A DNA stretch of 40,246 nt from Nanobdellota archaeon (GCA_021798355.1 JAJZMG010000018.1:1-40246), one strand, 5' to 3'. Shown: positions 3,189 to 40,246, numbered from the stretch's first letter. The notes: generated by a model from the letters alone, not told the origin. Made by a program: numbers and translations.

Positions 3189-3212
3189 GATACAACTTTA
3201 AAAAATAGGATT

Positions 3213-5759: not shown

Positions 5760-5868
5760 TATTAAAGCACTATTTCAAATTTATAAAATTTTATATAAAC
5801 ATCAGGTATGCTACTTTATTATAAATGTGAATCAGAACCTATAAATTAATCCAATTTGTTAGAATAAT

Positions 5869-8846: not shown

Positions 8847-9677
8847 ATGAAAATAAATAATTACCTTACATTTATCCTTGCTTTTCTGTTTTCATATCTG
8901 GTTTATTTTTTGTTCAATAATTTTTATCTGTATTATTATGCCCTGCCGATTGCATTCCTTTCTTCTCTTCTTCTGCTGACTTACACTTCCCACAAGCATT
9001 ATTTTTACTTAGTGTTTGCAGCTATTGCTATAGTTGTGTTTTCTAATGTGTTTCCGATTAGATTCTCCTTTGAAATTATTTCTGTAAGCCTGATTATTCA
9101 ATCACTGCTTATAATAAAATTGACATTAAAGACCGTGAAGTTAAGTAGTAAACTGGAGGTAAGAAGAGATGTTGTTCAGATTATTATAGGAAGCATATTC
9201 CTTTTAATGTTTGTATTCTCCTATAAACAGGTTTTACTAGCATTGATATTCCTTGGTATTATAGTGGCACACATTATCTATGTATATGGCGGTAAACTAA
9301 AGAGGTTAGTAAGCACACTCGAAAGAGAGGGTGTAATATTCGGCTCTGGTGCAATATCGATGGCAGCCGGTACTGTTTTATTGTTGGGTTTTTTAAACCA
9401 TTTTGACTTCCTCTTTTTCGGCCTTTTTTCTTTGCTTATTTCTGACCCTATAGCTACCGTAGTAGGCTTGAAGGTAATGAAAAGTCCAGGTAACAAATCA
9501 ATTATAGGTAGTTTTGCCTTTTTTGTCTCTTCTTCAATTCCAGGAGTAATATTTTTCGGCCTAGCCGGTATACTATTTGCATTTATTCTTTCTTTAGCTG
9601 AGAGATTCAGCCCGGTAGATGATAATATTTTTATAGCATTTATAGCGGTAATTTTATCGCTTGCTTTTTTCGTATAA
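8847..9677 (+). CDS. Dolichol/phytol kinase-like membrane protein (CTP_transf_1/Sec59 family)
   Basis: RRDVVQ, SDPIATVVG, KSIIGSFAFF, AE..DDNI motifs. In-frame ATG 8847 avoids overlap with the ATPase. Confidence 0.75.
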   Translation: MKINNYLTFILAFLFSYLVYFLFNNFYLYYYALPIAFLSSLLLLTYTSHKHYFYLVFAAIAIVVFSNVFPIRFSFEIISVSLIIQSLLIIKLTLKTVKLSSKLEVRRDVVQIIIGSIFLLMFVFSYKQVLLALIFLGIIVAHIIYVYGGKLKRLVSTLEREGVIFGSGAISMAAGTVLLLGFLNHFDFLFFGLFSLLISDPIATVVGLKVMKSPGNKSIIGSFAFFVSSSIPGVIFFGLAGILFAFILSLAERFSPVDDNIFIAFIAVILSLAFFV

Positions 9678-9707
9678 TTTAAATATACCAAAAACGATAA
9701 AAAAAGA

Positions 9708-10343
9708 ATGTTAGGTGTATTTTTGAGTGAAATTTTCATTGAGTTTTCAACTATTCTTATTCTTCTTTTAACAGTGCCTTTGGCTTCGTTAATGACTTAC
9801 AAGTTTCTAAAGAAGAGGGGAAAAAGTCAGCTTTACTGGTCAATAGGGCTTTGGCTATTTGGAGCGGGTGTTTTACTTGAGGTGCTCTTTTCATTCAATA
9901 TATACAACTCCTTTTTGATAAAGGCTTATCTAGCTGCAGTTGCATTTCTAGTTAGCTTTTTAGCTCTCGGTTCTACCGTATTGCTTAAAAACAAGAGAAT
10001 ATTCAATTACTATGGCATATTTTTCATTTTTTCAGGAGCGTTTGTCATATATTCTTTGATAGTATCAAGTATAGGTAATGTTCTCACAAACTATGTAGTA
10101 TTTGGCGTTCTGCCTCTACTTATCGTAATTTCTTCCTCGGTGATGACGTTTCCCGCTGCCGCAATGCTTATAGCTGTAGCTGTTATCTCATATAGAAAGA
10201 CTTCTAGTAAGAAAATGCTTTCGATAATAGCAGGTGTTTTGATAGTAAGCATAGCAGGTTCCCTTTATATTGCTCATTTTCCAGCGTTTTTATATTATTC
10301 TGAATTTATAGGCATACTCCTATTGTGGTTTGGTTTTATCTGA
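9708..10343 (+). CDS. Multi-pass (about 7 TM) membrane protein of unknown function
   Basis: Alternating hydrophobic segments; 211 aa. Confidence 0.7.
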   Translation: MLGVFLSEIFIEFSTILILLLTVPLASLMTYKFLKKRGKSQLYWSIGLWLFGAGVLLEVLFSFNIYNSFLIKAYLAAVAFLVSFLALGSTVLLKNKRIFNYYGIFFIFSGAFVIYSLIVSSIGNVLTNYVVFGVLPLLIVISSSVMTFPAAAMLIAVAVISYRKTSSKKMLSIIAGVLIVSIAGSLYIAHFPAFLYYSEFIGILLLWFGFI

Positions 10344-10407
10344 TTTTTATTTTAAATACTAAGGCTAAACATAGAAACATATAAAAGCACAAAATAAGTT
10401 AAATTAA

Positions 10408-12012
10408 ATGCCAGCAAAGTTCATAGTGGTATTAGGATCGATAATGAGTGGCTTAGGTAAAGGAGTAGTATCTTCTTCTATAATGAAAATATTAGACTTG
10501 TATAATTTTAAGGTCCTCCCAATAAAATTTGATGGGTATTTGAATTACGACTGTGGCACGATGAATCCGTACAGGCATGGGGAAGTCTTTGTTTTGGATG
10601 ATAAAGGAGAAGTGGATATGGATTTTGGTACATATGAACGATTCCTTAACACTAGCCTTACTAGCAGCTCTTCTATAACCGGGGGGAAACTTTTTGGAGG
10701 GATAATAGAAAAAGAGAGGAGGGGAGAGTACCTAGGGGAAGATGTGCAGGTTATTCCACACCTTACAAATGAGATACAAGAAAAAGTAAAGGAATTTGCA
10801 GATAGAAATAAGCTAGATTTTGTTATAATTGAAGTTGGCGGAACAGTCGGAGACATCGAAAACGGTTATTTTATAGAAGCCATGAGACAACTTTCACTTA
10901 AGGAACAGGTGGTATTTGTTGATGTTACTTACATACCAAGATTAAAGACGGTTGGGGAACAAAAGAGCAAGCCAACACAGTTTGCATTTAGAACTTTAAT
11001 GGGAATGGGCATAATTCCACAGTTTCTTGTATGCAGGACGGATGGCGAAATGAGCGACAGTATAAAAAAGAAGCTTTCCATGTTTACAAGTCTAGATGAA
11101 AGTAGAATTATAAATGACCCTGATATGGATTCACCTTACCAGCTACCACAGTATCTAATAAATCAGAATTTTGATAAGATCCTTTTAGAGACATTTAACA
11201 TGTATAATAAAAAGATAAACACCGAAAAACTTGAAAAATGGAGGGACAACGTTAATAGAATAATAAGCAAAGATGGAAAGATGGTTACAATAGCAGTAAT
11301 TGGGAAATACGTAGAGCTAAAAGATTCGTATGTAAGTGTTAGAGAAGCATTAATGCATGCTGCCGGCAAACTATCAGTTAACATAAATATAAAGTGGATA
11401 GAATCTGAATTGTTAGAGAAATCTAATCCTGAAAATATATTAAGAGAGGTTAGCGGTATAATAGTTCCAGGCGGTTTTGGAAAAAGAGGCATAGAAGGTA
11501 TGATAACTGGGATAAAGTATGCTAGAGAGAACGATTTGCCATATTTAGGTTTATGCTTAGGTATGCAGCTTATGGCGGTTGAGTTTGCAAGAGATGTATG
11601 CAATTTAAAGGGTGCAAATTCAACCGAATTCAATCCGGATACAAAATACAATATAGTAGATATCCTGCCTTCTCAGCTTTCAGTAAAGCAGAAAGGGGGA
11701 ACAATGAGATTAGGTTCATGGGAAATGGTTATAAAAGACAAGAGCTCAATAGCATTTTCCTCCTATCACAAAAAGACTGTATCGGAAAGACACAGGCATA
11801 GATACGAGCTTAACAATAAATTTAGGAAAATTCTTGAAGAGAACGGGTTAAAGATAACAGCTACAACTAAAGATAACAAATTAGCGGAAATAATAGAGTG
11901 GCCAAACGGTTTTGGTATCGCTACACAGGCGCATCCCGAACTAAAATCAAGGATAGAAGATCCAGCTCCCCTATTTTTATCCTTTCTAAGTGCTGCAAAG
12001 AATAACAGTTAA
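10408..12012 (+). CDS. pyrG: CTP synthase
   Basis: SGLGKG, GTMNPYRHGEVFV, EVGGTVGDIE, VPGGFGKRG, GLCLGMQ, ERHRHRYE, QAHPE. Confidence 0.98.
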   Translation: MPAKFIVVLGSIMSGLGKGVVSSSIMKILDLYNFKVLPIKFDGYLNYDCGTMNPYRHGEVFVLDDKGEVDMDFGTYERFLNTSLTSSSSITGGKLFGGIIEKERRGEYLGEDVQVIPHLTNEIQEKVKEFADRNKLDFVIIEVGGTVGDIENGYFIEAMRQLSLKEQVVFVDVTYIPRLKTVGEQKSKPTQFAFRTLMGMGIIPQFLVCRTDGEMSDSIKKKLSMFTSLDESRIINDPDMDSPYQLPQYLINQNFDKILLETFNMYNKKINTEKLEKWRDNVNRIISKDGKMVTIAVIGKYVELKDSYVSVREALMHAAGKLSVNINIKWIESELLEKSNPENILREVSGIIVPGGFGKRGIEGMITGIKYARENDLPYLGLCLGMQLMAVEFARDVCNLKGANSTEFNPDTKYNIVDILPSQLSVKQKGGTMRLGSWEMVIKDKSSIAFSSYHKKTVSERHRHRYELNNKFRKILEENGLKITATTKDNKLAEIIEWPNGFGIATQAHPELKSRIEDPAPLFLSFLSAAKNNS

Positions 12013-14117: not shown

Positions 14118-15878
14118 ATGACATTAACTTTTGCAGACTTTAAGGATATTGGATTCATAAGTAATCAGTTAACAAGCTCATTGATAGACAAGAACGGCAA
14201 CGTACTGTGGCTCTGCTTCCCAAGATTCGATTCTGATCCGTTTATAGCTTACCTGCTTGATGAAAATAACGGAGGAGTTTTCAGAATAAGCCCGCTGGAA
14301 CAGTTCTCATCTTTTCATAAGTATACTGCACCAAATGTTTTGCATACTAATTTTAAAACTGTTGGGGGAAATGCGGATATAAATGATTTTTTGATACCAG
14401 GTAAAACCATACTTGTAAGGAACATAAATTCAGAGATAAAACTGCAGCTTAATTTTAATCCATTATTCGCTTTTCATACCATGAATTTCAATTATTCCGA
14501 GAATGATGGTAAAATAATGTTTGATAGCAAAAATGGGAAAGGAAGGCTGGTTTTAGAGATAATTGGAGAATACAAGAAAACAGGGGATTTTATGTGGGAG
14601 ATAGAAAAAGGATTAACACAAGTCATACTGTCTTATTACCCGTCAGCAGAGATATACGAATTGGAAGGAAAAAATGTTTCTTCAGCTAATTTCTCAAAAG
14701 CGCTGGATTCAACTATAGATTACTGGGGAGCATATACGGAAAGAATAAAATTAAGTCTTTCAGGCACAGATTTAGAGGAATTCGAACAGCTTTTAAGGTC
14801 ATCAGTTTTTACAATACTTGGACTTACATATTCACCGACAGGCAGCATAATAGCTGCACCAACTACGTCTCTGCCTGAAGATCCGGGTGGAAATAGAAAT
14901 TGGGATTACAGATATGTTTGGGTTAGGGATTCGGCAATAATGGCGTCTACCTTATGTAGACTGGGATTTTATACAGAGGGTAGGAGGGCGCTTGAATTTT
15001 TATTCAGCATGATTGATTATTCGGGTAAACCCCTTTATAATCTTTACAAAGTAGATGGTACAAAAATATACGGCGAAAAGTATATTGACTCGTTGAATGG
15101 CTTTATGAATTCAAAGCCTGTAAGGATAGGCAATCGCGCTACTAACCAGATACAATTGGATATAGAAGGGGAGTTTTTATACGCCGTAAAAGGTTATTTT
15201 GATTCTACGCAGGATACGGAGTTTATACAAAATCATTCAAAGGCTATAGAATACATAGCGGATTGGCTCGTAGATAATTGGCAGCTTGCTGATTCAGGGA
15301 TATGGGAAAAGCCAGATGATCATGAATATGCGCATTCAAAAGTTATGATATGGGTGGCCCTGGAAAGCGTAGGAAAACTGATTTCATCTGTAGGCGGGAT
15401 AGATCGCTGGGAAGAAACAAGAAATGAAATAAAGAATTGGGTCATGTCCAATTGTGTAAAAGATGGTTACTTTGTTACTTTTCCTAGGAGCAATGAAGTA
15501 GATTCTACTATATTGTCATTTCCGATTTATGGTTTTATTGACCCTAACAATCCTGTCTTTGTTAAGACACTCAAGATCGTTGAAAAAACTTTATTTGTTA
15601 AAGGCTTTGTTTATAGGTATAACTTTGATTCGATTGGCAAGGCTAATCATGCCTTTGTTCTTTGCTCTATGTGGCTTGCTTCCGTCTACTCGCAGCTGAA
15701 AAGAAAGAATGAAGCTATACAGCTGCTTAAAAATGTAAAAAGTATAGTCGGACCGAATAATTTAATTGGAGAGGATATAGACGTGCATAATAAGATGTTT
15801 GCAGGTAATTTTCCTCAAGGTTTTGTACATGCTACATTTGTAAACTCAGTTATCGATATTTTAACAAATAGCAACTAA
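14118..15878 (+). CDS. Glycoside hydrolase family 15 (trehalase/glucoamylase-like)
   Basis: WLCFPRFDS, AAPTTSLPE..GG.RNWDYRYVWVRD, QLDIEGE, SGIWE, GNFPQGFVH. Confidence 0.93.
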   Translation: MTLTFADFKDIGFISNQLTSSLIDKNGNVLWLCFPRFDSDPFIAYLLDENNGGVFRISPLEQFSSFHKYTAPNVLHTNFKTVGGNADINDFLIPGKTILVRNINSEIKLQLNFNPLFAFHTMNFNYSENDGKIMFDSKNGKGRLVLEIIGEYKKTGDFMWEIEKGLTQVILSYYPSAEIYELEGKNVSSANFSKALDSTIDYWGAYTERIKLSLSGTDLEEFEQLLRSSVFTILGLTYSPTGSIIAAPTTSLPEDPGGNRNWDYRYVWVRDSAIMASTLCRLGFYTEGRRALEFLFSMIDYSGKPLYNLYKVDGTKIYGEKYIDSLNGFMNSKPVRIGNRATNQIQLDIEGEFLYAVKGYFDSTQDTEFIQNHSKAIEYIADWLVDNWQLADSGIWEKPDDHEYAHSKVMIWVALESVGKLISSVGGIDRWEETRNEIKNWVMSNCVKDGYFVTFPRSNEVDSTILSFPIYGFIDPNNPVFVKTLKIVEKTLFVKGFVYRYNFDSIGKANHAFVLCSMWLASVYSQLKRKNEAIQLLKNVKSIVGPNNLIGEDIDVHNKMFAGNFPQGFVHATFVNSVIDILTNSN

Positions 15879-17063: not shown

Positions 17064-17729
17064 ATGCAAGGTAAACCAAAGAAAAATAATTTTCTTGTTT
17101 ATGAAGTAATTGCAGTGGCTTTAATTGTAGTAATCGCAATAGCCGTAATATATACCCTTGTTCCCTCTTCTCCGTCAGCGGCGCTCCTTAAATTTATAAA
17201 AACTGTACCAAGCGGGGTAGCTGTTTACTCTACAAATAATTCGATAATAATAACAGGTTCGAATGTTACTCTGCCAATAGTTGCGTATGAGAATCTTTCC
17301 TACAATCCTGTATACAATATAACCTACCCTGTTAATGTAACGGCAGCAGATTCCTTTCTTGAAACTCCAAACCATGAACTTCCATACTTTATGGATTATG
17401 GTCTAATAGACCCAACATTCGTTATAAAGAAAGGATCTACTGTAAACTTTATTTTCATAAATCTAGGAGCAGAAATACATATATTTGCTATAACCCCTCA
17501 AGCTCCACCATTTAATCCATTTATAACGCTCTCTCCAGAAACATTAAAAGCGGATCTTTTATATTTACCAGCACTACCACCTCCTGCTAATTTTAATAAT
17601 CCTTTCAGCGGGAGCATTTATTCGACAAGTGGTTCTTATACGTTTAATGCAACTGGCACTTATTATTACCTTTGCCCTATACCAGGACATGCAGAATTGG
17701 GTATGTATGGTAAGATTGAGGTAGTATGA
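17064..17729 (+). CDS. Membrane-anchored rusticyanin/sulfocyanin-like type-1 blue copper protein
   Basis: N-terminal TM; DPTFVIKKGSTVNFIFIN..EIHIFAIT (His ligand); YYYLCPIPGHAELGMYGKI (C-x4-H-x4-M). Confidence 0.9.
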   Translation: MQGKPKKNNFLVYEVIAVALIVVIAIAVIYTLVPSSPSAALLKFIKTVPSGVAVYSTNNSIIITGSNVTLPIVAYENLSYNPVYNITYPVNVTAADSFLETPNHELPYFMDYGLIDPTFVIKKGSTVNFIFINLGAEIHIFAITPQAPPFNPFITLSPETLKADLLYLPALPPPANFNNPFSGSIYSTSGSYTFNATGTYYYLCPIPGHAELGMYGKIEVV

Positions 17730-18463
17730 TGGAAAACACTAAGAACAGCAATGCAATGATTCTAGCAATAATACTCGTAATAGCAGTCATAGTAATAATA
17801 GTGGCATTTCTTGCCATTAATCACACGATAAGCTTTGCAGGTCCTGTTTCCGTTTCTGTCTCTACTGCTTTAAGTACTGTACCAGCAGGCGTTACAGTTA
17901 ATGCGGCTACTAACACCATATATGTTAATAAATCTGCGACAATATCTATGGGAATGATAGATAATTTGTCTTCTGACCCTGCGAATAACATAACTTTAAA
18001 TTCTACTATTCCAGGAACTAGTACTCCTTATAAAGTATTGTTAGGAGAGTTGGACCTTCAGGCACTCCCTGCCTTCATGGTATATGGACTCATAAATCCT
18101 ACAATAGTTATAGAACAAGGTTCTACAGTTACATTTAATGCATTTGATTTATCTGACTACGCTTATCACGGGTATATGATAACAAATGATAGTTTTGCTC
18201 CACCTTATTCTATTCCAGGGCCGGAAGCCGCATTTAACGGTTATACTGGTTCAAAGGACATAGTCGTAAAGGGCATACTTATACCTCCCCCCAAGACTGG
18301 CAGAATATACGAAGAAAGTGAAATATTTACTGCAAATACCAATGGTGTATACTGGTACATCTGCCCAGTGTTTGGACATGCAGCATTGGGCATGTATGGT
18401 AAAATAGTCGTAAGTGCTTCTCCTTCTTCCACTGCAAGCACTAGCAGCAATGGTTATTCTTAA
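17726..18463 (+). CDS. Second membrane-anchored rusticyanin-like blue copper protein
   Basis: N-terminal TM; NPTIVIEQGSTVTF..YHGYMIT; YWYICPVFGHAALGMYGKI. ATGA overlap with the upstream paralog. Confidence 0.9.
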   Translation: MMENTKNSNAMILAIILVIAVIVIIVAFLAINHTISFAGPVSVSVSTALSTVPAGVTVNAATNTIYVNKSATISMGMIDNLSSDPANNITLNSTIPGTSTPYKVLLGELDLQALPAFMVYGLINPTIVIEQGSTVTFNAFDLSDYAYHGYMITNDSFAPPYSIPGPEAAFNGYTGSKDIVVKGILIPPPKTGRIYEESEIFTANTNGVYWYICPVFGHAALGMYGKIVVSASPSSTASTSSNGYS

Positions 18464-23428: not shown

Positions 23429-24778
23429 TTAATTTATGAAGTTGGAAACGGCTGCTAAATAAGCAGTTTCTGCCCAGAGAAGACAGTTTATCGTTGAATT
23501 TCCATTTCTTTCAAAGAAGCCATTTATGTCGTTTACTCTGTTTCTATCATAAATTTCTTGTTCTGGCAGTGATCCATCTTCCCCTATCTTGCTTTCTATG
23601 TAATTGATTATATTTTCTGCCTGCCCTTTCTTGTCTTTCTTGATAAGGTACATAGAATACTGCAGGCCTAGGTGAAACCAAGAGCCTCTTCCAAAATATG
23701 TGTCTGTTACACCCGCGTATTTTCCAAAAAATCTGTATCTTATTGGCAGGTAATCCCCCTGGAAAAGTTCATTTTCTATTATCTTTACAGTGTTTTCTTC
23801 TATTTGTTCTACCACATTAAGCTTAAAAGTATTAAATATCTCAATTTCTTCTGCCCCTATACTAGGCATGATTTCGCCATATTCTATCTTTGATTTTGCA
23901 AGAAAAGCCCCTCTTTTTTCATCTGTTACGATGAAATTATCTAGCAGGAAATTGGATATCTCAGATTCATCAGCATCCTTTAATTTAATATTAAATGTTT
24001 TTGCTAATTCCTTTGCGCTTTTTATTCCTTTGTAAAGAGAAGAGACCATATATGAATCGATGGTTTTGCCCACGTAATTTTGCCCATTAAGCGTATTATC
24101 TATATCATAAAAGTAATATTGCTCCCATGCATCTGCGCAAGGCGTTTTATGGAAATTATACATGTAGTTTATCAAGAAATCAAGGTTCTTTGCAATTTTT
24201 TTATCTATAGTTTTTAGCCCGTTTTTTCCATGCTCTTGAAAGTATCTTTCAGTAGCCATAATTATTAAAGGCGCAGAGTCATACTGCATTGTCCAGCTCC
24301 TTGTTGTTTTTCCTTCTTTTTTATCGTTCTCGGTTCTTTTTACGCCATTTTCATCAACATCAAATCTTGACAGTATATGGTTATCACCAAGTTTTGATTC
24401 AAGCTTTGATATATCCGTTTCATACCCATTCATCTTTATTTTTTTTATCTCAGCATCCAAATTTTCCCACAATGTTGCCACGAGTTTTCCATTTAAATTA
24501 TCCAATTCATCAATCTCTTCGCTTAACAATCCATATAAATTGGTTTTTTTGGCATTTACTATAAATTCTGTAATGTAATAAGAAGAATACGCAGCATCTC
24601 TATTCCACATAAGATTGTAATCTGCATATTTTAAAGATGCAGGCGCTTTTACCAGATCATTAAAAGGTATAAAATGTCTTTTTACTTCTGTAATAACTTT
24701 CTTTATTTTATCAAGTCTTTCTTTTTTAGCAGTAATTTCTAGTGTTCCCGTTTTTTCTTCATTTTGAAAGTCAGGCAT
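23429..24778 (-). CDS. GH15-like glucoamylase (catalytic domain only)
   Basis: YNLMWNRDAAY, QYD, DAWE (acid), LPEQ (base), LLWAETAY. Confidence 0.75.
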   Translation of the reverse strand: MPDFQNEEKTGTLEITAKKERLDKIKKVITEVKRHFIPFNDLVKAPASLKYADYNLMWNRDAAYSSYYITEFIVNAKKTNLYGLLSEEIDELDNLNGKLVATLWENLDAEIKKIKMNGYETDISKLESKLGDNHILSRFDVDENGVKRTENDKKEGKTTRSWTMQYDSAPLIIMATERYFQEHGKNGLKTIDKKIAKNLDFLINYMYNFHKTPCADAWEQYYFYDIDNTLNGQNYVGKTIDSYMVSSLYKGIKSAKELAKTFNIKLKDADESEISNFLLDNFIVTDEKRGAFLAKSKIEYGEIMPSIGAEEIEIFNTFKLNVVEQIEENTVKIIENELFQGDYLPIRYRFFGKYAGVTDTYFGRGSWFHLGLQYSMYLIKKDKKGQAENIINYIESKIGEDGSLPEQEIYDRNRVNDINGFFERNGNSTINCLLWAETAYLAAVSNFIN

Positions 24779-27004: not shown

Positions 27005-27105
27005 AAGAAATTTAACAATTTGACGAGAATCTCCTTTGTAATACTAGTATAAGCCGGGTGTAATTTACTATAAAGCTATTTAACTAAATATTTTATTTAG
27101 TGATT

Positions 27106-28044
27106 ATGGCTATAGAGATGAAAAACTTCAATGGAGATGCGTGGGGCATACTCTTTGTTATCCTTATACCTTTAGTTGTAGGTTACCTAGTTTCAATTGT
27201 TAATTTATATGCAGGGGTAGGAATTGCAATATTACTTTTTATTGCGTTTTTAGTTGCCGCCATACGGGTGGTTAACCAATGGAACAGGAAAGCAGTACTT
27301 TCATTTGGAAAGTATGTTGGTATAATGGGACCAGGCATACATATACTGATACCATTTGTACAGACTACCCCCGTTACATTGGATTTGAGGGTAATAAACA
27401 CGATTTTTAAGGCTGAGAAGACGCTTACAAAGGACAATGTGCCAGTAGACGTAGATGCACTTCTTTTCTGGAAGGTTCTAAACTCGGAGAACGCTGTTTT
27501 GAATGTTCAGATTTACAGAGATTCCGTTCAATTGGCAGCACAGACGGCTTTACGAGATGTAATAGGTAAAACCGAATTATCTGAGATGTTGGCAGGCAGA
27601 GACGTAATAGGTAAGGATGTAAAGAACTTGATACAAGACAGAGTAGCAGACTGGGGGATAGAAGCAATATCTGTTGAAATAAGGGATGTAAGTATACCTC
27701 CAGATTTACAGGATGCAATGGCCAGGGTTGCTGTAGCAGACCGGGAAAAGCAGGCAAGAGTTAAATTAGCAGAAAGCGAATCCCTTGCCGCGGATAAAAT
27801 CATAGAGGCAAGCTCAAAGTATAAAAAAGATTTGTTTGCGATGCAACTTAGATCGCTCAATATGATGTATGAAATAAGTTTAAATGGAAAGAATCTTATG
27901 ATATTTATTCCAACAGATAGTAAAGGATTTAGTATACCTACACCTGTGGGGGTTGAAGGGATAAAAGACCTGTTTGAAAAGAGTAACGTAAAGAATTTAC
28001 CCGGTAAAGCCGATAAAGAAAACGAAGCAAAGAGGGATAACTGA
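27106..28044 (+). CDS. SPFH/band-7 (stomatin-like) membrane protein
   Basis: N-terminal TMs; GPGIHILIPFV, LDLR, TLTKDNVPVDVDA, AQTALRDVIG, QDAMARVAVADREK. Confidence 0.93.
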   Translation: MAIEMKNFNGDAWGILFVILIPLVVGYLVSIVNLYAGVGIAILLFIAFLVAAIRVVNQWNRKAVLSFGKYVGIMGPGIHILIPFVQTTPVTLDLRVINTIFKAEKTLTKDNVPVDVDALLFWKVLNSENAVLNVQIYRDSVQLAAQTALRDVIGKTELSEMLAGRDVIGKDVKNLIQDRVADWGIEAISVEIRDVSIPPDLQDAMARVAVADREKQARVKLAESESLAADKIIEASSKYKKDLFAMQLRSLNMMYEISLNGKNLMIFIPTDSKGFSIPTPVGVEGIKDLFEKSNVKNLPGKADKENEAKRDN

Positions 28045-28113: not shown

Positions 28114-28779
28114 ATGGTAGAAATAAAAAGAATACCTACGGGTATACAGGGCCTAGATAAAAAGATAGAAGGTGGGTTTGAAGCAGGTTCTGTAGTAAGT
28201 GTATTGGGTGGGCCCGGATCTGGAAAATCCCTGCTAGGCATGTCATTTTTACATGAAGGCTTAAAGAACGGAGAAACATGCCTTTTAGTATCATTTGAAG
28301 AAAACGTTGATGATTTAATACTTGATATGGAATCTATCGGTTTTGTGGATGTAAGAAAGTTTATTGCTGATAAAAAATTAATAGTTTCATTTAATTCGCC
28401 TATAAACTTTGAATATTTGGGTGTGCTTGATGTAATCCAAGAGAACAATGTTTTTAGGGTTGTAATTGATTCTTTGTCTGCCATCTCTATGTATATGGAA
28501 GACAGAGGCAAATTCAGGAAATTCATGCTGGATTTAGTTACCGAGCTCAAAAAGTTTAAGGTAACTGCAATAGTTACTGATGAGCAGCCGCAGGTTTCTG
28601 ATGGTGATACACTTTACTTCAGTGGTGAGTACCTTTCTGATGCAGTCATAAAGTTGTTCTATACAGGTTTGGGTGGCGATTTCGACAGAAGCATGCAGAT
28701 AGTGAAGATGAGAAGAACCAACAATGATAGATCAATGCTTCCGATGAGAATAGATAAAGGCGGCATATATGTCAAATGA
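28114..28779 (+). CDS. Single-domain KaiC-like RecA-superfamily ATPase
   Basis: RIPTGIQGLD..GGF, Walker A GGPGSGKS, SFEE, Walker B VVIDS, EYLSDAVIKL, R.MQIVKMR. Confidence 0.93.
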   Translation: MVEIKRIPTGIQGLDKKIEGGFEAGSVVSVLGGPGSGKSLLGMSFLHEGLKNGETCLLVSFEENVDDLILDMESIGFVDVRKFIADKKLIVSFNSPINFEYLGVLDVIQENNVFRVVIDSLSAISMYMEDRGKFRKFMLDLVTELKKFKVTAIVTDEQPQVSDGDTLYFSGEYLSDAVIKLFYTGLGGDFDRSMQIVKMRRTNNDRSMLPMRIDKGGIYVK

Positions 28780-29290
28780 TTCTAGTCCCAAAGACTTCTT
28801 AAACAAAATGCTTTTAACTGGAAATATAACCTTTGACGGTAAGCATCTTTTGTTAATGGGTAGGCCAGGTTTATTGCTAAATGCCGATATACTAGTTAGT
28901 TTGTATGGATACCTTTTAAAGTACGATAAGGATGCACTTTTTAATGCGGGTGTTAAGTCAATTAATGACATAATAATAGATTATAAAAATAGATTTAGTG
29001 ATATAAACAAAATTTTTTCATTATTATCTGAGATCGTAGAAACTTCTGGCCTTGGCGAGTTTGATTTTGTTTTCGAAAAGTTAAATTCTATTCTTAGAGC
29101 TAATAATTCAATTATTCCAATAAGATATTTGACGCTTTTTGGAAGATCAGATAAACCCATTTGTTTCTTTTTGACAGGCATGTTTTATCAGTCTTTAAAG
29201 ATAGTATTTAACAAGGATTACAAAGTTGAGGAGGTGACGTGCATCGCTAAAGGAGACAATGTATGTACTTTTTTAGCTAAAGAAATTTAA
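28769..29290 (+). CDS. V4R-domain (XylR/DmpR-type ligand-binding) protein
   Basis: SGLG, PICFFLTG, VEEVTCIAKGDNVCTF: the Cys/Glu/Cys/Cys pattern of V4R. Confidence 0.88.
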   Translation: MSNDSSPKDFLNKMLLTGNITFDGKHLLLMGRPGLLLNADILVSLYGYLLKYDKDALFNAGVKSINDIIIDYKNRFSDINKIFSLLSEIVETSGLGEFDFVFEKLNSILRANNSIIPIRYLTLFGRSDKPICFFLTGMFYQSLKIVFNKDYKVEEVTCIAKGDNVCTFLAKEI

Positions 29291-29292
29291 TT

Positions 29293-30642
29293 ATGAAACC
29301 TAGTTTAAAGAACACTTTGGAATATGCATTTAAAAATGTTGATTTTTATAAGCAGGATAACTATAAAAAAATATTATCTGAGAATAGAGGCAAACTTGAC
29401 CATCTTCTACTTTCGCGATTACCAATAATTGACGGAAATTATTTTTTGAATGATTTTTATAAGTTTATTCCGTCAAATCCAAATTCATACATATTTGACT
29501 TTGAAACATCTGGTTCATCGGGTACTCCAAAGAATATACCCGTAGATGTTAATTTTATGAGTGATTATGTTAATGGAGTTATAAATATTTTTAATGATAT
29601 ACTCGATGGCGCTCCAAAATTTTATATAAATATAGCACCTCCAAAACCAGCAATAAGTGGGGTTCTTATGAGTAGATTAGTTGAGCTAGTAAATGGGATT
29701 GAATTTGTTCCTGGCCCAGGGCAGAGAATTTTAGATGTGTTGCGAAATGCTTATGCAGTATACTCAAATCATAAAAACATGGGCAAAAAAGTAAATATAA
29801 TGGCGATATCCTCTTTACTATTTAGGGAAGTTTATAGTTTGAATAAAGATGAATTGAATGAATTAAAGAGTTTAACAAATAGCCTTGATGTGTATGTTTT
29901 GTTAGCTGGAGAGCCAGTTGATTTCAATAGGGTAAAGTTATTACAAAAGATGTTTAATACTAAAGGGGTAATAGATTTAATAGGCACAACAGAGGGGGCT
30001 TCTGGTTATAGATTTTATAGCTATAACAATATAATAAATAACAATGATCCGGGGTATGAATTTATAATGAATGATTATAACGTGCATTATAGCATTTTTG
30101 ACGGTAATAAGTTATTAGAATTAAATAATAAAAACGTTGGGGAAAAAGGAGAATTAACCATAACACAAAAATCGCGTAAAAACAAAACTATTTGCCCATT
30201 AATTAATTATAATATGAAAGAATTAGTGATTTTTCGTGGATTTTATAAAGGGAAACCAAAGTTTGAGTTTATCGGCAGGAGTAATAAGCTAACTAATTTT
30301 AGTGTATCAAAATTAAATGATAATATTATAGATGATGTAATTGCGGGGGCAATTTTAAATTATGATGTCGGCGAGGGATATGCAGAGATTACGAGAGAAA
30401 ATGGTTTAGATAAGTTGTTGTTCCATTTCTATAAAAAAGGTTTTAATGGAGATAAGAACTCAATTAAAAGTTTTTTAGAAAACGCTTTATCTAATCATGA
30501 AATGGAGCTTTCTTATGTTATTAAAAACAAATTAGGATTAATAGATATTGATATCACGGACAAGAAAGAAGACATACCATTTTACGTTCAAAAGGGCAAA
30601 TCCATACGTTTAATGGATAAAAGAGGGATAGAACACTACTGA
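29293..30642 (+). CDS. PaaK-like adenylate-forming enzyme (ANL superfamily)
   Basis: LEYAFKNVDFY, SRLPII, ETSGSSGTPK, AGEP, GTTE, GELTIT, PLINY, GRS, GKSIRLMDKR parallel PaaK motifs. Confidence 0.8.
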   Translation: MKPSLKNTLEYAFKNVDFYKQDNYKKILSENRGKLDHLLLSRLPIIDGNYFLNDFYKFIPSNPNSYIFDFETSGSSGTPKNIPVDVNFMSDYVNGVINIFNDILDGAPKFYINIAPPKPAISGVLMSRLVELVNGIEFVPGPGQRILDVLRNAYAVYSNHKNMGKKVNIMAISSLLFREVYSLNKDELNELKSLTNSLDVYVLLAGEPVDFNRVKLLQKMFNTKGVIDLIGTTEGASGYRFYSYNNIINNNDPGYEFIMNDYNVHYSIFDGNKLLELNNKNVGEKGELTITQKSRKNKTICPLINYNMKELVIFRGFYKGKPKFEFIGRSNKLTNFSVSKLNDNIIDDVIAGAILNYDVGEGYAEITRENGLDKLLFHFYKKGFNGDKNSIKSFLENALSNHEMELSYVIKNKLGLIDIDITDKKEDIPFYVQKGKSIRLMDKRGIEHY

Positions 30643-30643
30643 T

Positions 30644-31741
30644 TTAGGACCTTGAAAGGTTTGAAACGCCGTCTATCTCCTTAAATGACTTTGTTGCTTT
30701 CGTTGTCTTTCTCCTTACGGCGTAGTCCTCGTCATTTATTAGCAGAAGTTCTGGTTCAGCAACTATCATCTTTGTTTGTGCCTTTTCTCCGTATTTAGTG
30801 GTTTTTCCACCGTAGTTCATATATATAAATGTAAGGGGGAAAGAGGGGAAATAGGTTATATTATTATCGCCTGAAAAACCTATTGAGGATTTTCCTGCGT
30901 AATGACCGTACATAGGTATAAGCTTTTTACCAATTTCTTTTTCTGTCTTTTTTAATCCTTTTCCAGTTATCTGTGTACCAGACACCTTTATTAAATTAGT
31001 GTCGTAAAACAGGTCTTTAGGTAACATTGAAAGCATCTCCATCGCAGCCGTAGCTATTCCAACGTTACCTTCTTTTAATAAGTAAGTCTCCTTTTCCATG
31101 ACAGGTTTCATTGCCTGCATCATCTCTTGTGGACTTAAAAGTTTCAATCCCTTTGTCTCAAATTCATTTCCTACATATTCCATTCGAAGGAGTTCTGCTA
31201 GTTTTTTGTGTTCTTCCTGGTAAGCGCCTACAGGGCCTGCGGCCAGTAATTTCTTGTTTTTTAGCTCCTTTACTGGATACTGCGCCTTTATTCCGGTGTA
31301 TTCATTGACTGCCGATATATACAAAGATTGCGGTGTATGGTAAACTGTTTTTGCTGGTCCGGTAGTTCCAGAGGAAGAACTTTTAAACATAGTATCTGTT
31401 TTAAAACCTGTAGGCATGTAATAACGTTCGTAACCTCTCTCCTCCTTTAAAAGGTTGGAATCAGAATTACCTAAAAGCGAAACTAACTCATCTAAGCTTT
31501 TGGCGTTGTATATTTTGGCGGGAGTTATATCCTTGATGTATGCTTTCGAAACCCAATACCTTGAGCCGGTACTACCGTTTATTTGATAGTTTGCCACTTC
31601 CTTTAACCAATTCAGCATTCCGTCTTCAACGTTACTATTTAACAATGCTTTATCAAAGGGTTTTTTAAACTTAGACCATTCTCCTTCGAATAAGTTCTCC
31701 CCATTAGCGTACTTTCTCAAGTTTTTTATATAATTATTCAT
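30644..31741 (-). CDS. EhpF/GriC-like atypical adenylate-forming enzyme
   Basis: GSTGSRYW, SSSGTTGPAK, AGP.G, SGT, PMYG, ITYFPSFP, YGEKAQ, DGVSN. 365 aa with no C-terminal ANL subdomain. Subfamily call is from recalled motif pattern. Confidence 0.65.
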   Translation of the reverse strand: MNNYIKNLRKYANGENLFEGEWSKFKKPFDKALLNSNVEDGMLNWLKEVANYQINGSTGSRYWVSKAYIKDITPAKIYNAKSLDELVSLLGNSDSNLLKEERGYERYYMPTGFKTDTMFKSSSSGTTGPAKTVYHTPQSLYISAVNEYTGIKAQYPVKELKNKKLLAAGPVGAYQEEHKKLAELLRMEYVGNEFETKGLKLLSPQEMMQAMKPVMEKETYLLKEGNVGIATAAMEMLSMLPKDLFYDTNLIKVSGTQITGKGLKKTEKEIGKKLIPMYGHYAGKSSIGFSGDNNITYFPSFPLTFIYMNYGGKTTKYGEKAQTKMIVAEPELLLINDEDYAVRRKTTKATKSFKEIDGVSNLSRS

Positions 31742-31819
31742 TCTATAATAGTGATAAGTTGTAATATAAATACTTTACTTAGAACCAAAATTATATAACA
31801 TACGCATATATAACTTACT

Positions 31820-32038
31820 ATGATAACGGAGGAATTGAGCAGTAAAAAGAAAAAAATCTTTTTTTCTGTAGTTATAGTTTACTTTTTAGTCGGGTTTTTG
31901 CTTATACTTATATTCCTGACAAGGTATTTTGGTCCAAACGGAGCTAGTCTTATAGGAATACTTTATCTAGCATTGGGCTGGCTGTTCCTTTATCGCTGGA
32001 AAGGGTTGTTCAAGATAATGAAAATAAAATACAAGTAG
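31820..32038 (+). CDS. Small 2-TM membrane protein
   Basis: 72 aa, two hydrophobic helices, TTATATAA at 31791. Confidence 0.6.
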   Translation: MITEELSSKKKKIFFSVVIVYFLVGFLLILIFLTRYFGPNGASLIGILYLALGWLFLYRWKGLFKIMKIKYK

Positions 32039-32044
32039 AGCTTC

Positions 32045-33214
32045 ATGATAAAAAACAATGTCAAGGATTCTGGTATCTCATTTGTTCATATAGTATTTAC
32101 TATAATGATAATAACCTTTTCTATACGAGCAAGCAACAACATGCTTACTACCTCCGTTCCACTACTGGTCAAGTATTATTTTGGTTTCTCTGAAACAGAA
32201 GTCGGATTAATAGCGGCCTTATTGTCTTTTACCACTTTTCTCACGACGGCTTTTTTAAATGCTAAGTTATCGGCAAACAAAAGGCGCGTAGCGTTTATAG
32301 TTTCTAATTTCATTTACATGCTTGTATTTATCAGCATATGGGTTTCCAATTTTTACAGCATTTGGGCATTAGCAGCAATAATGGGCGTTCTTCTAGGGTT
32401 CATAATGCCTAACATAATAACGGCTGCCGGCCTTTTCAAAGATCCAAAGACAAGGGACAGAATACTGTCCATTTACACGGTCATATTGAGTTTTAGCCTT
32501 ATAATCGGTCCGTTGATAGAGTCGGAGCTTCTCAAATTTGTAAACATACGGGAAGCATTTCTTATATTTGCGTTATTTGGTTTAATTTCATTTGTTCTTT
32601 CTCCTTTAATGAAGTTTCCGGTTGAAAAGCAGAAAAAGATCAAGGTCAAAGTGTTTTCAAACTACGGTTTCCGCTCAGCTGTTTTCAATATAATGGCATA
32701 TAATATACCCTTTGCAGTATTGATAGCATTTGCAGGAATATACGAAAGGGACACTTTCAAAATCTCTCTTTCCTTTGTTACCTTGGTGTTTTCGTTATTT
32801 TTCCTTACGTCCTTTTTATCGAGGATATATCTATCGATTAAACCTCCTAACAACATAAAATTTATGATGAATGGAACAATCGTTTTAACGCTAATAGGCA
32901 TAACAGTAATGGTTTTTTCGAGGAATTTAGAGATATTCATAGTTTCATTTCTGATTTTGGGGATACCACACGGTTTTGCATACCCTGTTTCAATAATTAC
33001 GCTTGGCAGGTCATTCCAGGCCAGATTAAGAAACGTTGCAAATAGTTACTTTTTTGCAATAATGATGGCAGTCGGCGTGCTTTTGCCAACCTTGTCAGGC
33101 TTTTCGATAGACAACATAGGTTTTAAGCTTACCTTTATTTTCATAACTCTTTTAATAGTTGTTTTGCTGGTATTAAATAATATTAATTTCAGGAGATGGA
33201 AACTTAATGTATGA
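32045..33214 (+). CDS. MFS transporter
   Basis: 389 aa, about 12 TM; SLIIGP and LGIPHGFAYP segments. Confidence 0.85.
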   Translation: MIKNNVKDSGISFVHIVFTIMIITFSIRASNNMLTTSVPLLVKYYFGFSETEVGLIAALLSFTTFLTTAFLNAKLSANKRRVAFIVSNFIYMLVFISIWVSNFYSIWALAAIMGVLLGFIMPNIITAAGLFKDPKTRDRILSIYTVILSFSLIIGPLIESELLKFVNIREAFLIFALFGLISFVLSPLMKFPVEKQKKIKVKVFSNYGFRSAVFNIMAYNIPFAVLIAFAGIYERDTFKISLSFVTLVFSLFFLTSFLSRIYLSIKPPNNIKFMMNGTIVLTLIGITVMVFSRNLEIFIVSFLILGIPHGFAYPVSIITLGRSFQARLRNVANSYFFAIMMAVGVLLPTLSGFSIDNIGFKLTFIFITLLIVVLLVLNNINFRRWKLNV

Positions 33215-35198: not shown

Positions 35199-35765
35199 AT
35201 GTATAATGATAAATTTTCAATAAGAAATATGTTGAAAATAGGGATACCAACGCTTCTTTTTCTGCCTATAATATTAGTCATAGCGTTGTTTTCTGGCAGC
35301 ATTCTTTTTTTGGATTACGTTCATGTGTTCAGCGGTGCTTCTTGGACAGGCATGGATCTTTTTATGGGCCTTTTTTTCTCCTTTGTTATGAAAGGACTTG
35401 ACAACGATGAGAGAGTTGAGGTATCTAAAAGGCTTACGCCGATGATGCTTTTTTTCATGCCCTCCATATCAGCAGTAACGATAACGGCGGGGATAATACT
35501 AGCAATGAAAGAAGGAATTTTTATTCTATCCTCCCCCATAATTATAGCCGTTCTTGTAATAGCTAGTATACTTACTTTACAAGGCATAGGCATATTCCTG
35601 CCAAATGAGTTAAGGGTTTATCTGGAGATAAAGCACGGCAGTAAAGACAAAGATAAAATAGTAAGGCTTACAATGTTTAACTTAAAACTAGCATTCAGCC
35701 AAGTTATCTTTCAAATAGCAATAATACTGCTTATGGCACATCTTGCTACGGGGTTAGCGCTATGA
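35199..35765 (+). CDS. Membrane protein with H-V-x4-W-x-G motif (CopD/DUF2269-like), paralog 1
   Basis: DYVHVFSGASWTGMDLFMG; 5 TM. Confidence 0.6.
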   Translation: MYNDKFSIRNMLKIGIPTLLFLPIILVIALFSGSILFLDYVHVFSGASWTGMDLFMGLFFSFVMKGLDNDERVEVSKRLTPMMLFFMPSISAVTITAGIILAMKEGIFILSSPIIIAVLVIASILTLQGIGIFLPNELRVYLEIKHGSKDKDKIVRLTMFNLKLAFSQVIFQIAIILLMAHLATGLAL

Positions 35766-36310
35766 TGATTAATTTTAGGTCTATTTACAGGTTCGGGGCA
35801 GTATCTGCAGCCTTGCCGTTGCTTTTTTTGGTTATAGTCTATGCGGTCAAGGACTACCTTTTAATAGACTATATACATGTTCTTGCCGCAGCGTTATGGC
35901 TGGGTTGTAATCTTTTTATGGGTTTCATATTCTACATTGTAATAAAAGATTTGGATGATAAGGAAAAGGTTGACATAACTATAAGGCTGCTTCCTCTTAC
36001 GTTGTTTTTTATACCCTCTATAACTTTAACCACAGTAATCGCAGGCTACATACTTGCCTTTTACATAGGCCTTTTTTCATACTCTGCTTTCATCTACATG
36101 CCAATAATTGTAATCTCCACGGTCCTTCTCTTGCTCTCTTTCATTTATTATATAGGAGATTCTCTGGGGATAATAATGATTTTAAATCATAAGACAAACA
36201 TTAAAAAAGTCATAGAACTTTCTATGAGAAACTTCAAAGTCGCCTTTGTCCAGTTGATATTACAGTCTATAATAATAGGATTTATGGCCTACATAGTCGT
36301 ATCATTATAA
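35762..36310 (+). CDS. Membrane protein with H-V-x4-W-x-G motif, paralog 2
   Basis: DYIHVLAAALWLGCNLFMG; alignable to 35199 along its length; ATGA overlap. Confidence 0.6.
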   Translation: MMINFRSIYRFGAVSAALPLLFLVIVYAVKDYLLIDYIHVLAAALWLGCNLFMGFIFYIVIKDLDDKEKVDITIRLLPLTLFFIPSITLTTVIAGYILAFYIGLFSYSAFIYMPIIVISTVLLLLSFIYYIGDSLGIIMILNHKTNIKKVIELSMRNFKVAFVQLILQSIIIGFMAYIVVSL

Positions 36311-39199: not shown

Positions 39200-40246
39200 C
39201 GGTTCCACCGAGAATTCCCCTTTCATAAGATGAGTGGTGAAAGGTGGTAAAGGTATAAAACCTAAGTAAGAGTAAATAAAATATGCGTAATTACAAGTTC
39301 AGATTATATCCGAATAAAGTCGTAGAAACGGAGCTTAACAGGCAATTAGATCTATGCAGATGGACTTATAACAGGCTTTTAGAAGAATTAAACAAGGCAA
39401 AAGAAGAAGGAAGAAAGCTCAAAAGATATGACACGCAACAATTCCTTGTAAAGCTTAAGGAAGAAGATAAATCAGAGTTAAAAAACGTCTACTCAAAGAC
39501 ATTGCAAATGGTAAATCAGCAGTTATGGAACAATATCCACACGTTAGCAGGAAGGAAGAAAAAAGGCTATAAGATAGGAAAATTAAGGTTCAAAGGCTAT
39601 GACTTGTTCAAATCAATATTCTACAATCAAAGCGGATTCATTATAGGAAACAGGAAAATAATCCTTTCAAAAGTTGGAAAAGTAAAAGCAGAGTTTCACA
39701 GGGAAATAAAAGGCAACATCAAAGGTATAATAATCAGCAAAAGAGCAGATAAATGGTATGCCTGCATTCAAGTAGAGAATCCTAAACAAGAAAGGGCTCA
39801 ATCAAAAGTCAATCCAGATACCTTACATAAAGCAGTAGGCATAGACAGAGGAATAAAGCATTTTCTTGCAGACAGCAACTCCAAAGTTGTGGAAAAACCT
39901 AGATTCCTGCAGAAGACTGCGGATAAAATAGCAGCTATTCAAAGGCAATTGGCAAAGAAAAAGAAAGGTTCTAACAGAAGAACCAAGGTAAAATTACGAT
40001 TAAGTAAATCTTATGAGCATCTGCAAAACCAGAGAAAGGATTTTACCCATAAATTATCTACGGAACACGTGAAGAACTACGGAATAATCGTAGTTGAAAA
40101 GTTAAACATTCAGGGAATTGCAAAGAATCACAGATTAGCAAAAAGCATATACAATGCCTGCTGGCTGCAGTTCATATTCTTTTTATCCTACAAGGCTGAA
40201 AGTGCTGGCAGGATATTGATAAAAGTAGACCCGAAGAACACTACGC
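39200..40246 (+). mobile_element. IS200/IS605-family element (no tnpA upstream of tnpB), right end outside window
   Basis: tnpB preceded by a GC-richer hairpin (CCTTTCA 39219-39225 / TGAAAGG 39238-39244). Left boundary is inferred. Confidence 0.65.
39283..40246 (+). CDS. tnpB: RNA-guided endonuclease TnpB (partial, runs off window)
   Basis: Not in ORF track. Manual translation: MRNYKFRLYPN..CRWTYN..AVGIDRG (RuvC-I)..KKKKGSNRR..DFTHKLS..IVVEKLNI (RuvC-II)..SYKAESAG..VDPKNTT. Confidence 0.95.
   Translation, partial: MRNYKFRLYPNKVVETELNRQLDLCRWTYNRLLEELNKAKEEGRKLKRYDTQQFLVKLKEEDKSELKNVYSKTLQMVNQQLWNNIHTLAGRKKKGYKIGKLRFKGYDLFKSIFYNQSGFIIGNRKIILSKVGKVKAEFHREIKGNIKGIIISKRADKWYACIQVENPKQERAQSKVNPDTLHKAVGIDRGIKHFLADSNSKVVEKPRFLQKTADKIAAIQRQLAKKKKGSNRRTKVKLRLSKSYEHLQNQRKDFTHKLSTEHVKNYGIIVVEKLNIQGIAKNHRLAKSIYNACWLQFIFFLSYKAESAGRILIKVDPKNTT

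Follow-up and report, generated by a model that had tools for sequence, protein, structure and literature searches.

Known KaiC and V4R systems and the present locus

Single-domain KaiC ATPases are widespread among archaea, and a role for these KaiC-like proteins as hubs of signal transduction was reportedly put forward by Makarova, Galperin and Koonin in mBio in 2017. To our knowledge, almost no inputs or outputs of these hubs have been defined. Here we analyze a four-gene locus in a 40,246-nucleotide (nt) stretch of DNA (the window; GCA_021798355.1 JAJZMG010000018.1:1-40246) from Nanobdellota archaeon, an acid-mine DPANN archaeon whose genome (G000) comprises 50 contigs, amounts to about 0.7 Mb (700 kb) and is 87% complete. 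The locus encodes a KaiC-like ATPase, a stand-alone V4R protein and two different adenylate-forming (ANL) enzymes, referred to here as ANL449 and ANL365. These four genes form one inherited unit, and sequence comparisons indicate that the V4R and ANL449 genes have been exchanged between lineages as a cassette. The four genes are:

28114-28779, plus strand: KaiC-like ATPase, 221 amino acids (aa) (Pfam PF06745)
28769-29290, plus strand: stand-alone V4R protein, 173 aa (Pfam PF02830)
29293-30642, plus strand: ANL449, ANL enzyme of predicted PaaK fold, 449 aa (assigned by fold and motifs)
30644-31741, minus strand: ANL365, predicted EhpF-like ANL enzyme without the C-terminal subdomain, 365 aa (assigned by fold and motifs)

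A sequence-only reading of the window had described six tightly packed open reading frames (ORFs) at this position and proposed that they form a self-contained circuit that makes or modifies a carboxylate ligand, transports it and senses it through V4R and KaiC. The ORF map of the window reproduces this layout throughout: six ORFs, a V4R start that overlaps the KaiC end by 11 nt, a gap of 2 nt between V4R and ANL449, convergent ANL449 and ANL365 genes with 1 nt between their stop codons (30642-30644), and a divergent spacer beyond ANL365. Since the single nucleotide between the convergent stops leaves no space for terminators, the two transcripts may overlap in antisense. Neither a paa catabolic gene nor a DNA-binding regulator, both noted as missing in that reading, is present among the 36 window ORFs scanned with Pfam, a set smaller than the full complement of ORFs in the 40,246-nt stretch. 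AT-rich, TATA-like boxes can be seen by eye about 25-35 nt 5' of KaiC, ANL365 and the first gene beyond the spacer, and carry no evidential weight because the DNA is 33% GC.

The locus can be compared with several described systems. As in the archaeal KaiC hubs, a small sensor-type protein adjoins a single-domain KaiC whose Walker A, Walker B and EE motifs are intact; distinctive here is that this pair is tied to two adenylate-forming enzymes, one of which is exchanged along with the sensor. The C-terminal half of the V4R protein keeps all four Cys/Glu cluster residues of MopR, and the module may, like the XylR, DmpR, MopR and PoxR systems, pair a sensor with neighbouring enzymes whose substrate it recognises. 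It differs from these sensors in that its V4R protein stands alone and in that its presumed output is the KaiC ATPase rather than transcription. ANL365 is in the length class of EhpF (365 as against 345-352 residues), has its P-loop, ends like it at the hinge and finds in it its best structural match; the two are only 15-17% identical, and ANL365 is archaeal, has no phenazine genes nearby and is partnered by KaiC and V4R. ANL449 shares the two-domain PaaK-type fold with PaaK1/2, BT_0428, NatL2 and AjiA1, the latter two being ester- or amide-forming enzymes, but identity to the PaaK family is 12-16%, no paa genes lie near ANL449 and coenzyme A (CoA) may not be its acceptor. The bacterial comQXP and agrBDCA pherotype loci offer a parallel in which a producer-type enzyme and a binder co-diverge between conserved flanks around a conserved transducer; unlike these, the module has no peptide, no histidine kinase and no linked exporter, and there is no evidence of a secreted signal.

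No description of a KaiC-V4R-ANL combination was found in the literature on KaiC with V4R or PaaK, on Parvarchaeota KaiC, or on archaeal V4R/TRAPP proteins, supplements being outside the search. A search by term in Podar et al. 2008 turned up no operon, ATPase or adjacency. Within the literature covered, the enzyme complement is unusual and the behaviour of a specificity cassette is new, and the theme of KaiC plus a sensor was already known.

Conservation of the four-gene module

The presence of the four genes was surveyed in 41 genomes, consisting of G000, 24 others of its genus and 16 from 16 other families of the class. ANL365 occurs in 9 of the 41 (G000 and 8 of the 24 other genus genomes, but none of the 16 other families) and ANL449 in 10 (9 of the 24). 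V4R is found in the same nine genus genomes as ANL449, and as weak matches in 3 of the 16 genomes from other families. The only genome with V4R and ANL449 but no ANL365 (locus L024) has its contig cut inside ANL449. KaiC homologues (E<=1e-10) are far more common, being present in 36 of the 41 genomes, with two paralogues of about 30% identity in every genus genome except G014; matches of at least 47% identity are confined to the nine module genomes and to G023 and G007 (gene at contig end). Across the whole order, which comprises 40 genomes in one family and three genera, ANL365 is present in 18: in 12 of 32 genomes of g1 besides G000, in 4 of 5 of g18 and in 1 of 2 of g19.

Adjacency was assessed by tblastn with the window proteins at the 18 ANL365 loci, namely the window, L027-L042 and L044. 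In 16 of these, comprising the window and loci from 15 other genomes, the four genes lie side by side. The two that are not intact are L030, which is cut inside ANL365, and the disrupted locus L037. The 16 loci come from three genera, all within one order (Parvarchaeales), lie in at least four genomic contexts and show three gene orders:

KaiC>V4R>ANL449><ANL365: the window and 8 further loci, plus the scrambled locus L034
ANL365>KaiC>V4R>ANL449, all co-directional: L038-L041 and L044 (5 loci)
ANL365>KaiC>V4R><ANL449: L042 (1 locus)

At two of the co-directional loci, L038 and L044, the genes overlap by 4 to 11 nt or are separated by gaps of about 5 nt, and ANL365 overlaps KaiC by 4 nt. The flanks of the distant loci were scanned with Pfam at L038, L044 and L042 only: L038 has a sulfatase and a DUF72 protein on one side and GatA/GatB/AspRS on the other, L044 has a tRNA_SAD protein and PolB as neighbours, and L042 is flanked by Nuo-like subunits. 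In L044 the four genes are still together at identities to the window of 59% (KaiC), 28% (V4R), 25% (ANL449) and 35% (ANL365). A second metagenome scan with the ANL365 alignment A1 returned three loci, only one of them genuine (L049, of co-directional order); it is not counted as independent because its identities are nearly the same as those of L041. Three further candidates (L050, L051 and L043) were dropped, as they gave short matches in the P-loop range only, and L045, a second ANL365 copy on a 3.3-kb contig, has no bearing on adjacency.

The adjacency of the four genes in 16 of 18 ANL365 loci and in three orders is beyond what chance would produce. The sequence-only reading would have been contradicted by enzymes unlinked from kaiC-V4R in other genomes, and they are linked there in three arrangements. 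The four genes are one inherited unit, found in one DPANN order (Parvarchaeales) as far as searched. That they are neighbours through inherited synteny only, with no joint function, is suggested by the origin of all loci in one order and by the nine that share their whole neighbourhood; against this stand the three gene orders, the at least four unrelated flanks, the continued adjacency at 25-60% identity, the overlapping reading frames and the loss of the module as a block (see below), and we consider this explanation highly improbable. Instead, the four genes very probably form one functional unit in which V4R and ANL449 are co-adapted.

Two of the loci are rearranged. In L034 (identical to L014, on an ARMAN-4 scaffold), the module is scrambled within 9076-11851: ANL449 residues 131-449 are on the minus strand, followed on the plus strand by KaiC residues 71-221, V4R and ANL449 residues 2-230, with a fragment of the 389-residue MFS protein (MFS389) at the contig end. 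Either an inversion with a duplicated edge of about 100 residues or a misassembly could account for this order. In L037 (ARMAN-5 scaffold; 2790-3455 and 5852-6403), ANL365 is immediately followed, 730 nt from the contig end, by a 183-aa ORF that resembles a DDE transposase by eye. An upstream 221-aa ORF ends in a fragment of a second ANL365 copy (residues of about 224-339). A mobile element seems to have rearranged this locus.

Exchange of a V4R-ANL449 cassette

Within the genus of the window, the proteins of the module differ sharply in their histories. The proteins of locus L028 are 94% (SPFH, an upstream neighbour described below), 90% (KaiC), 91% (MFS), 75% (ANL365), 95% (V4R) and 96% (ANL449) identical to those of the window; for L031 the corresponding values are 94, 91, 89, 76, 48 and 44%. 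Nucleotide identity, measured in 150-nt steps, locates the difference between these loci in a single segment:

28816-30577: exchange cassette of V4R and ANL449, with breakpoints near the KaiC stop and the ANL449 stop

The window and L028 are 88-97% identical over this segment; outside it they reach about 85% in SPFH and in KaiC, and 61-84% in ANL365. Against flanks of about 88%, identity over the segment falls to 47-70%, with 49-68% for L028 and L031. The breakpoints match the KaiC stop/V4R start on one side and the ANL449 stop on the other.

The trees agree with the identities. In both the V4R and the ANL449 trees, the window and L028 form a clade with 100% support and a long stem that falls outside all other genus alleles. 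In approximately unbiased (AU) tests, whose p-values are here descriptive only because the groups were named after the identity tables were seen, a clade of L028, L027 and L031 is rejected for V4R (p 8e-9) and for ANL449 (p 3e-7) but not for KaiC (p 0.47), and it is recovered by ANL365 (support 80); the grouping of the window with L028 is rejected by KaiC (p 0.042) and by ANL365 (p 0.007). Pairwise identities of V4R and ANL449 are strongly correlated (r 0.95 over 36 pairs; r 0.99 over 21 close pairs), and those of either protein with KaiC are not (r -0.12 to 0.42). These comparisons indicate that V4R and ANL449, and only these two, moved together between lineages as one cassette, an observation that is new here.

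The cassette proteins are also the fast-evolving pair of the module. KaiC is 70-91% identical to the window protein at the other genus loci and 59-64% identical in the other two genera; in comparisons of the window with g18 the identity is about 60% for KaiC, about 45% for ANL365, about 37% for V4R and about 36% for ANL449. V4R and ANL449 thus diverge faster than KaiC at every depth, with KaiC as the slow, conserved part.

The window ANL365 is an outlier of its own, being 74-78% identical to the close genus loci (L028 included), which are themselves 76-88% identical to each other, and a protein 97% identical to it is known elsewhere (P0002). Because this ANL365 is an outlier although the V4R and ANL449 of L028 are 95-96% identical to those of the window, the module is a mosaic of at least three histories.

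Genes of the backbone

In the genus of the window, the module is inserted into a set of genes that are present with or without it:

27100-28044, plus strand: SPFH/Band-7 protein, the upstream backbone flank of the insertion site in the window's genus (Pfam PF01145, 2.1e-38)
31742-31819: divergent spacer, 78 nt
31820-32038, plus strand: 72-aa ORF with two transmembrane stretches (2-TM; two hydrophobic stretches, by eye)
32045-33214, plus strand: MFS transporter (Pfam MFS_1, 115.6 bits against a cut-off of 33.4)

The SPFH protein is 84-96% identical across the genus loci. In L018 (genome G019), about 100 nt separate SPFH from the 2-TM gene and MFS, and the four module genes are all lacking. This arrangement indicates that the module enters or leaves the site between SPFH and the 2-TM gene as a single block. 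The MFS gene is in turn absent from the module-bearing loci L029 (G003) and L042 (G009), and at the co-directional loci L038-L041 and L044 tblastn detected neither of the two genes, 2-TM or MFS. Since the neighbourhood is syntenic over about 19 kb, the proximity of MFS in the window's genus is that of an inherited backbone. The module therefore consists of four genes, and the 2-TM/MFS pair belongs to the backbone. The 2-TM protein and the transporter, which had been taken as parts of the circuit, fall away from it: they persist without the module in L018 and are missing at the module loci L029, L042, L038-L041 and L044. Of the proposed circuit, the linkage of kaiC, V4R and enzymes holds in 16 of 18 ANL365 loci, and the transport part is not supported.

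These results bear directly on the possibility of self-signalling, in which the enzymes would make or modify a carboxylate, MFS would export it and V4R-KaiC would sense it back in a quorum- or pherotype-like manner. The co-variation of an enzyme and a binder as a cassette beside a conserved transducer resembles the polymorphic synthase/receptor pairs of the bacterial comQXP and agr loci, and in the window's genus MFS is 300 nt from ANL365 across the divergent spacer. However, the 2-TM gene and MFS persist without the module in L018, MFS is absent at L029 and L042, neither gene was detected by tblastn at five co-directional loci, and the locus of this approximately 0.7-Mb genome contains no precursor-forming genes. 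Self-signalling is thus unlikely.

The distribution of the module could also suggest conflict or defence, with KaiC and V4R sensing an invader cue, the ANL enzymes acting as effectors and cassette swapping reflecting an arms race. The occurrence of ANL365 is patchy (18 of 40 genomes of the order), the block is absent from L018, the cassette is exchanged and a transposase-like ORF lies beside the disrupted copy in L037. Yet PADLOC (PADLOC-DB 2.0) assigns V4R, ANL449 and ANL365 to 0 families and gives for KaiC only a P-loop match to mad8 (residues 7-71, 29.8 bits), and the flanks are housekeeping genes rather than defence islands, so that a defence function seems very unlikely.

Features of the KaiC-like ATPase and the V4R protein

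Both proteins had been named from the sequence alone, and Pfam bears out the two assignments above its cut-offs. The KaiC-like protein, a member of the RecA superfamily, matches PF06745 over residues 7-220 (158.2 bits against a cut-off of 26.6; 2.9e-46). Its best NCBIfam match, KaiC_arch_3, reaches 127.5 bits against a cut-off of 249, and the protein is therefore not a member of that equivalog. Circadian KaiC is a two-domain protein of about 500 aa. The present protein, with a single domain and 221 aa, scores 124 bits vs 408 and 73 vs 546 against the circadian models (TIGR02655 / NF006799), which rules out this identity. Residues G32, G35, G37 and K38 of Walker A, the E62-E63 catalytic glutamate pair and D119 of Walker B, according to the usual definitions of these motifs, are invariant in alignment A3 (18 sequences). 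Since Walker A, the EE pair and Walker B are kept in 18 of 18 aligned sequences, the KaiC-like protein is probably an active ATPase.

The V4R protein matches PF02830 with 42.9 bits against a cut-off of 31 (5.1e-11), and has besides this only a weak match to MetOD1. It aligns without gaps to residues 142-194 of the MopR sensor domain, the N-terminal half being unaligned. In this alignment C132, E155, C158 and C166 correspond to C155, E178, C181 and C189 of MopR, and all four residues are invariant among 16 module V4R sequences (alignment A4). The conserved cysteine cluster of V4R domains is presumably a zinc or other metal site. According to Galperin et al. (PMC5847659), three highly conserved cysteines are clustered in V4R and are common to the phenol sensors PoxR and MopR. 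On these sequence features the V4R protein is predicted to be a small-molecule binder. An activator of the XylR/DmpR type is ruled out, as the 173-aa V4R protein has neither an AAA+ sigma-54 domain nor a helix-turn-helix (HTH) domain and scores 17 bits vs 999 for MobR.

KaiC and V4R are also paired outside the order. Genome G036, from another DPANN family of the same class, contains two pairs in which the reading frames abut or overlap and which have no ANL genes:

L019, 6276-7546: V4R>KaiC pair without ANL genes
L020, 6394-7676: V4R>KaiC pair without ANL genes

One of these pairs adjoins CutA1 and the other a transglutaminase-like protein and a SAM methyltransferase. The existence of V4R>KaiC pairs without ANL genes suggests that V4R and KaiC are the sensing core of the module. 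Co-folding of KaiC with V4R from alignments A3 and A4 gave a score of 0.00 in both runs, which carries no weight either way.

The two adenylate-forming enzymes

Neither ANL449 nor ANL365 reaches a Pfam or NCBIfam cut-off, the Pfam AMP-binding model included. The best matches below threshold are to GH3_M (19.2 bits against 23.6) and to an amino-acid adenylation domain (17 bits), and sequence searches against the Protein Data Bank (PDB) returned nothing significant. Both proteins contain ANL-type P-loops, ETSGSSGTPK in ANL449 and SSSSGTTGPAK in ANL365, and the further assignments come from predicted structures and conserved motifs.

The ANL365 model (alignment A1, 17 homologues) has a pLDDT of 89.9 and a pTM of 0.90. 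Its top five Foldseek matches in the PDB are chains of 3hgu, 3hgv and 3l2k (345-352 residues; E 7e-17 to 3e-15, TM-scores 0.68-0.75, identity 15-17%), entries titled 'phenazine antibiotic biosynthesis protein', with BT_0428 and PaaK1/2 ranking next. We take the three entries to be EhpF, the ANL enzyme of D-alanylgriseoluteic acid/phenazine biosynthesis that is without a C-terminal domain. The SSSSGTTGxxKTVYH motif and the last-but-one residue, R364, are invariant in A1 (17 sequences), and the alignment ends at R364. Look-alikes in the ESM Atlas, with a score of 0.96, belong to clusters named 'phenazine antibiotic biosynthesis protein' and 'acyl-protein synthetase LuxE', and 72 of the 80 listed cluster-representative matches to the ANL365 profile are 320-430 aa long. 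By its predicted structure, ANL365 is an EhpF-like ANL enzyme that lacks the C-terminal domain and ends at the hinge; it had been described as a second, different adenylating enzyme, which the Foldseek matches bear out.

ANL449 was modelled from alignment A2 (15 sequences) with a pLDDT of 73.6. The top Foldseek matches are BT_0428, AjiA1, PaaK1/2, AMP-ligases of the PaaK family and NatL2 (E 6e-15 to 8e-13). Against chains of the PaaK family the Foldseek probability is 1.00, with TM-scores of about 0.47-0.49, a large root-mean-square deviation and 12-16% identity; the low TM-scores are as expected for two domains that are oriented differently. Invariant in A2 are T72-S73-G74..G77..K80, T233-E234, G328-R329 and K436, presumably the ANL core motifs A3, A5, A8 and A10, and a C-terminal K-x5-D-x-R motif can be recognized by eye. 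ANL449 is thus, by modelled fold and motifs, a two-domain PaaK-type ANL enzyme. The name 'PaaK-like' given to it earlier is apt as far as fold and motifs go and does not extend to function as a PaaK equivalog, which is ruled out, as no PaaK model is among its NCBIfam matches at E<=1.

Both enzyme families are small. At E<=0.001, one enzyme has 25 homologues among 8000 scored candidates and the other has 18 among 7265, and the ANL365 profile (A1) matches 80 of 1.84 billion cluster representatives at E<=1e-3, 37 at <=1e-10 and 10 at <=1e-30. Among the homologues of the two enzymes, Candidatus Parvarchaeum and Parvarchaeota archaeon are typical source names. The sources named outside Parvarchaeota are the isolate Sulfolobus sp. 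E5-1-F (P0026, 36% identity), a 5.6-kb contig of a 'Thermoprotei' metagenome-assembled genome (MAG) and, with a partial protein, 'Conexivisphaerales'. A metagenome scan with the Sulfolobus homologue P0026 gave 0 relatives among 171 stretches.

The architecture of ANL365 raises the possibility of a multi-enzyme machine, in which V4R would hold a hydrophobic acyl group in the manner of its eukaryotic relative Bet3 and act as the partner of ANL365, the KaiC hexamer would be a scaffold or motor, and the output would be a modified lipid or protein. An enzyme that ends at the hinge arginine without a C-terminal domain needs a partner, no carrier protein (PF00550) was found in the genome, ANL365 overlaps KaiC by 4 nt in the co-directional arrangement, and V4R is homologous to Bet3 of TRAPP (PMC2253512). 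On the other hand, no fusions of V4R to longer proteins were found at E<=0.001 among 7999 candidates, which is weak evidence. The invariant Cys/Glu/Cys/Cys residues of V4R correspond to the cysteine cluster of MopR, presumably a metal site, which leaves no obvious free acceptor cysteine. We regard such a machine as quite unlikely.

Metabolic setting

In the window genome (87% complete), no match was found to PF00501 (AMP-binding), PF00550 (carrier), PF00549 (CoA ligase; succinyl-CoA-ligase-type) or PF04127 (CoaB); the last of these models matched in 14 of 14 control genomes. Given the lack of a PF00501 match, ANL449 and ANL365 are the only ANL-type enzymes detected in this genome. CoA may have to be acquired, and by analogy with GH3, NatL2 and AjiA1, a non-CoA acceptor leading to an amide or ester would be at least as likely as a CoA thioester.

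Proposed mechanism

Sensors of the XylR/DmpR/MopR type recognise substrates of the enzymes under their control. By analogy, the V4R protein may bind a small hydrophobic or aromatic carboxylic acid that ANL449 adenylates, or the product of this reaction. As the module has no DNA-binding domain, the KaiC ATPase would receive the signal of ligand occupancy and determine the output by its nucleotide or phosphorylation state. ANL365, being without the C-terminal domain and the catalytic lysine that this domain carries, is expected to need a partner, with which it would activate the same molecule a second time. The ligand would be an acid acquired from the host or environment and conjugated as an amide or ester, rather than a self-made and exported signal or a classical CoA thioester. 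An acquired, conjugated acid is favoured by the genome size of about 0.7 Mb and by the failure to find CoaB, a carrier protein or another ANL enzyme, and acquisition is more likely than synthesis as the locus has no precursor pathway or linked exporter. The V4R-ANL449 cassette would then set which acid a lineage handles. This specific scheme, of a carboxylate shared by V4R and ANL449, transduction by KaiC and a partner-dependent ANL365, is a tentative one, plausible but somewhat short of probable.

Several considerations weigh against this interpretation. Everything beyond gene linkage is inference, including the shared ligand of V4R and ANL449. All loci belong to a single order, and related loci are not independent of each other; moreover, the genus neighbourhood of about 19 kb is wholly syntenic, so that 9 of the 16 adjacent loci add little. 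The cassette represents essentially one exchange event (window, L028 and L024 versus the rest), and the co-transfer of the adjacent V4R and ANL449 genes may just be a consequence of the positions of the recombination breakpoints. Since V4R-KaiC pairs also exist without ANL enzymes, the enzymes may be targets or passengers instead of ligand partners. In addition, the ANL449 model is only moderately confident, and the absence of CoaB from an 87%-complete MAG does not show that it is truly absent.

A bolder extension is that the cassette types are strain-specific small-molecule 'dialects', each conjugating or making, and sensing, its own carboxylate through the conserved KaiC. We consider this improbable. 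If true, the dialects would allow ultrasmall episymbiotic archaea to recognise kin or hosts. Pherotype-like signalling would then have its first locus in Archaea, and an archaeal KaiC hub its first defined input.

The module offers a compact and testable case of KaiC input, with one KaiC, one ligand-binding protein and two enzymes open to substrate screening. Natural cassette variants should differ in specificity and so provide a built-in specificity experiment. The DPANN archaea that carry the module have genomes of about 0.7 Mb, in which any gene set that is kept is likely to matter for life with a host. The module also gives context to the very small orphan enzyme family represented by ANL365.

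Other features of the window

Several other genes in the window are of separate interest. At 35199-36310 there are two tandem paralogous ORFs of 188 and 182 aa without a Pfam match, which cross-match at 32-40% identity in tblastn searches of relatives' loci; by tblastn they are present in L028, L031 and L034 and were not detected in L029, L032 and L033. The window ends within an ORF of the IS605 OrfB/TnpB type (39283-40245), which matches OrfB_IS605 and HTH_OrfB_IS605 and contains the beginning of a Cas12f1-like TNB domain. Two adjacent cupredoxin/sulfocyanin-like ORFs lie beside a DoxX-domain protein at 17064-18463, and two glycoside hydrolases of the GH15 family are encoded at 14118-15878 and 23429-24778.

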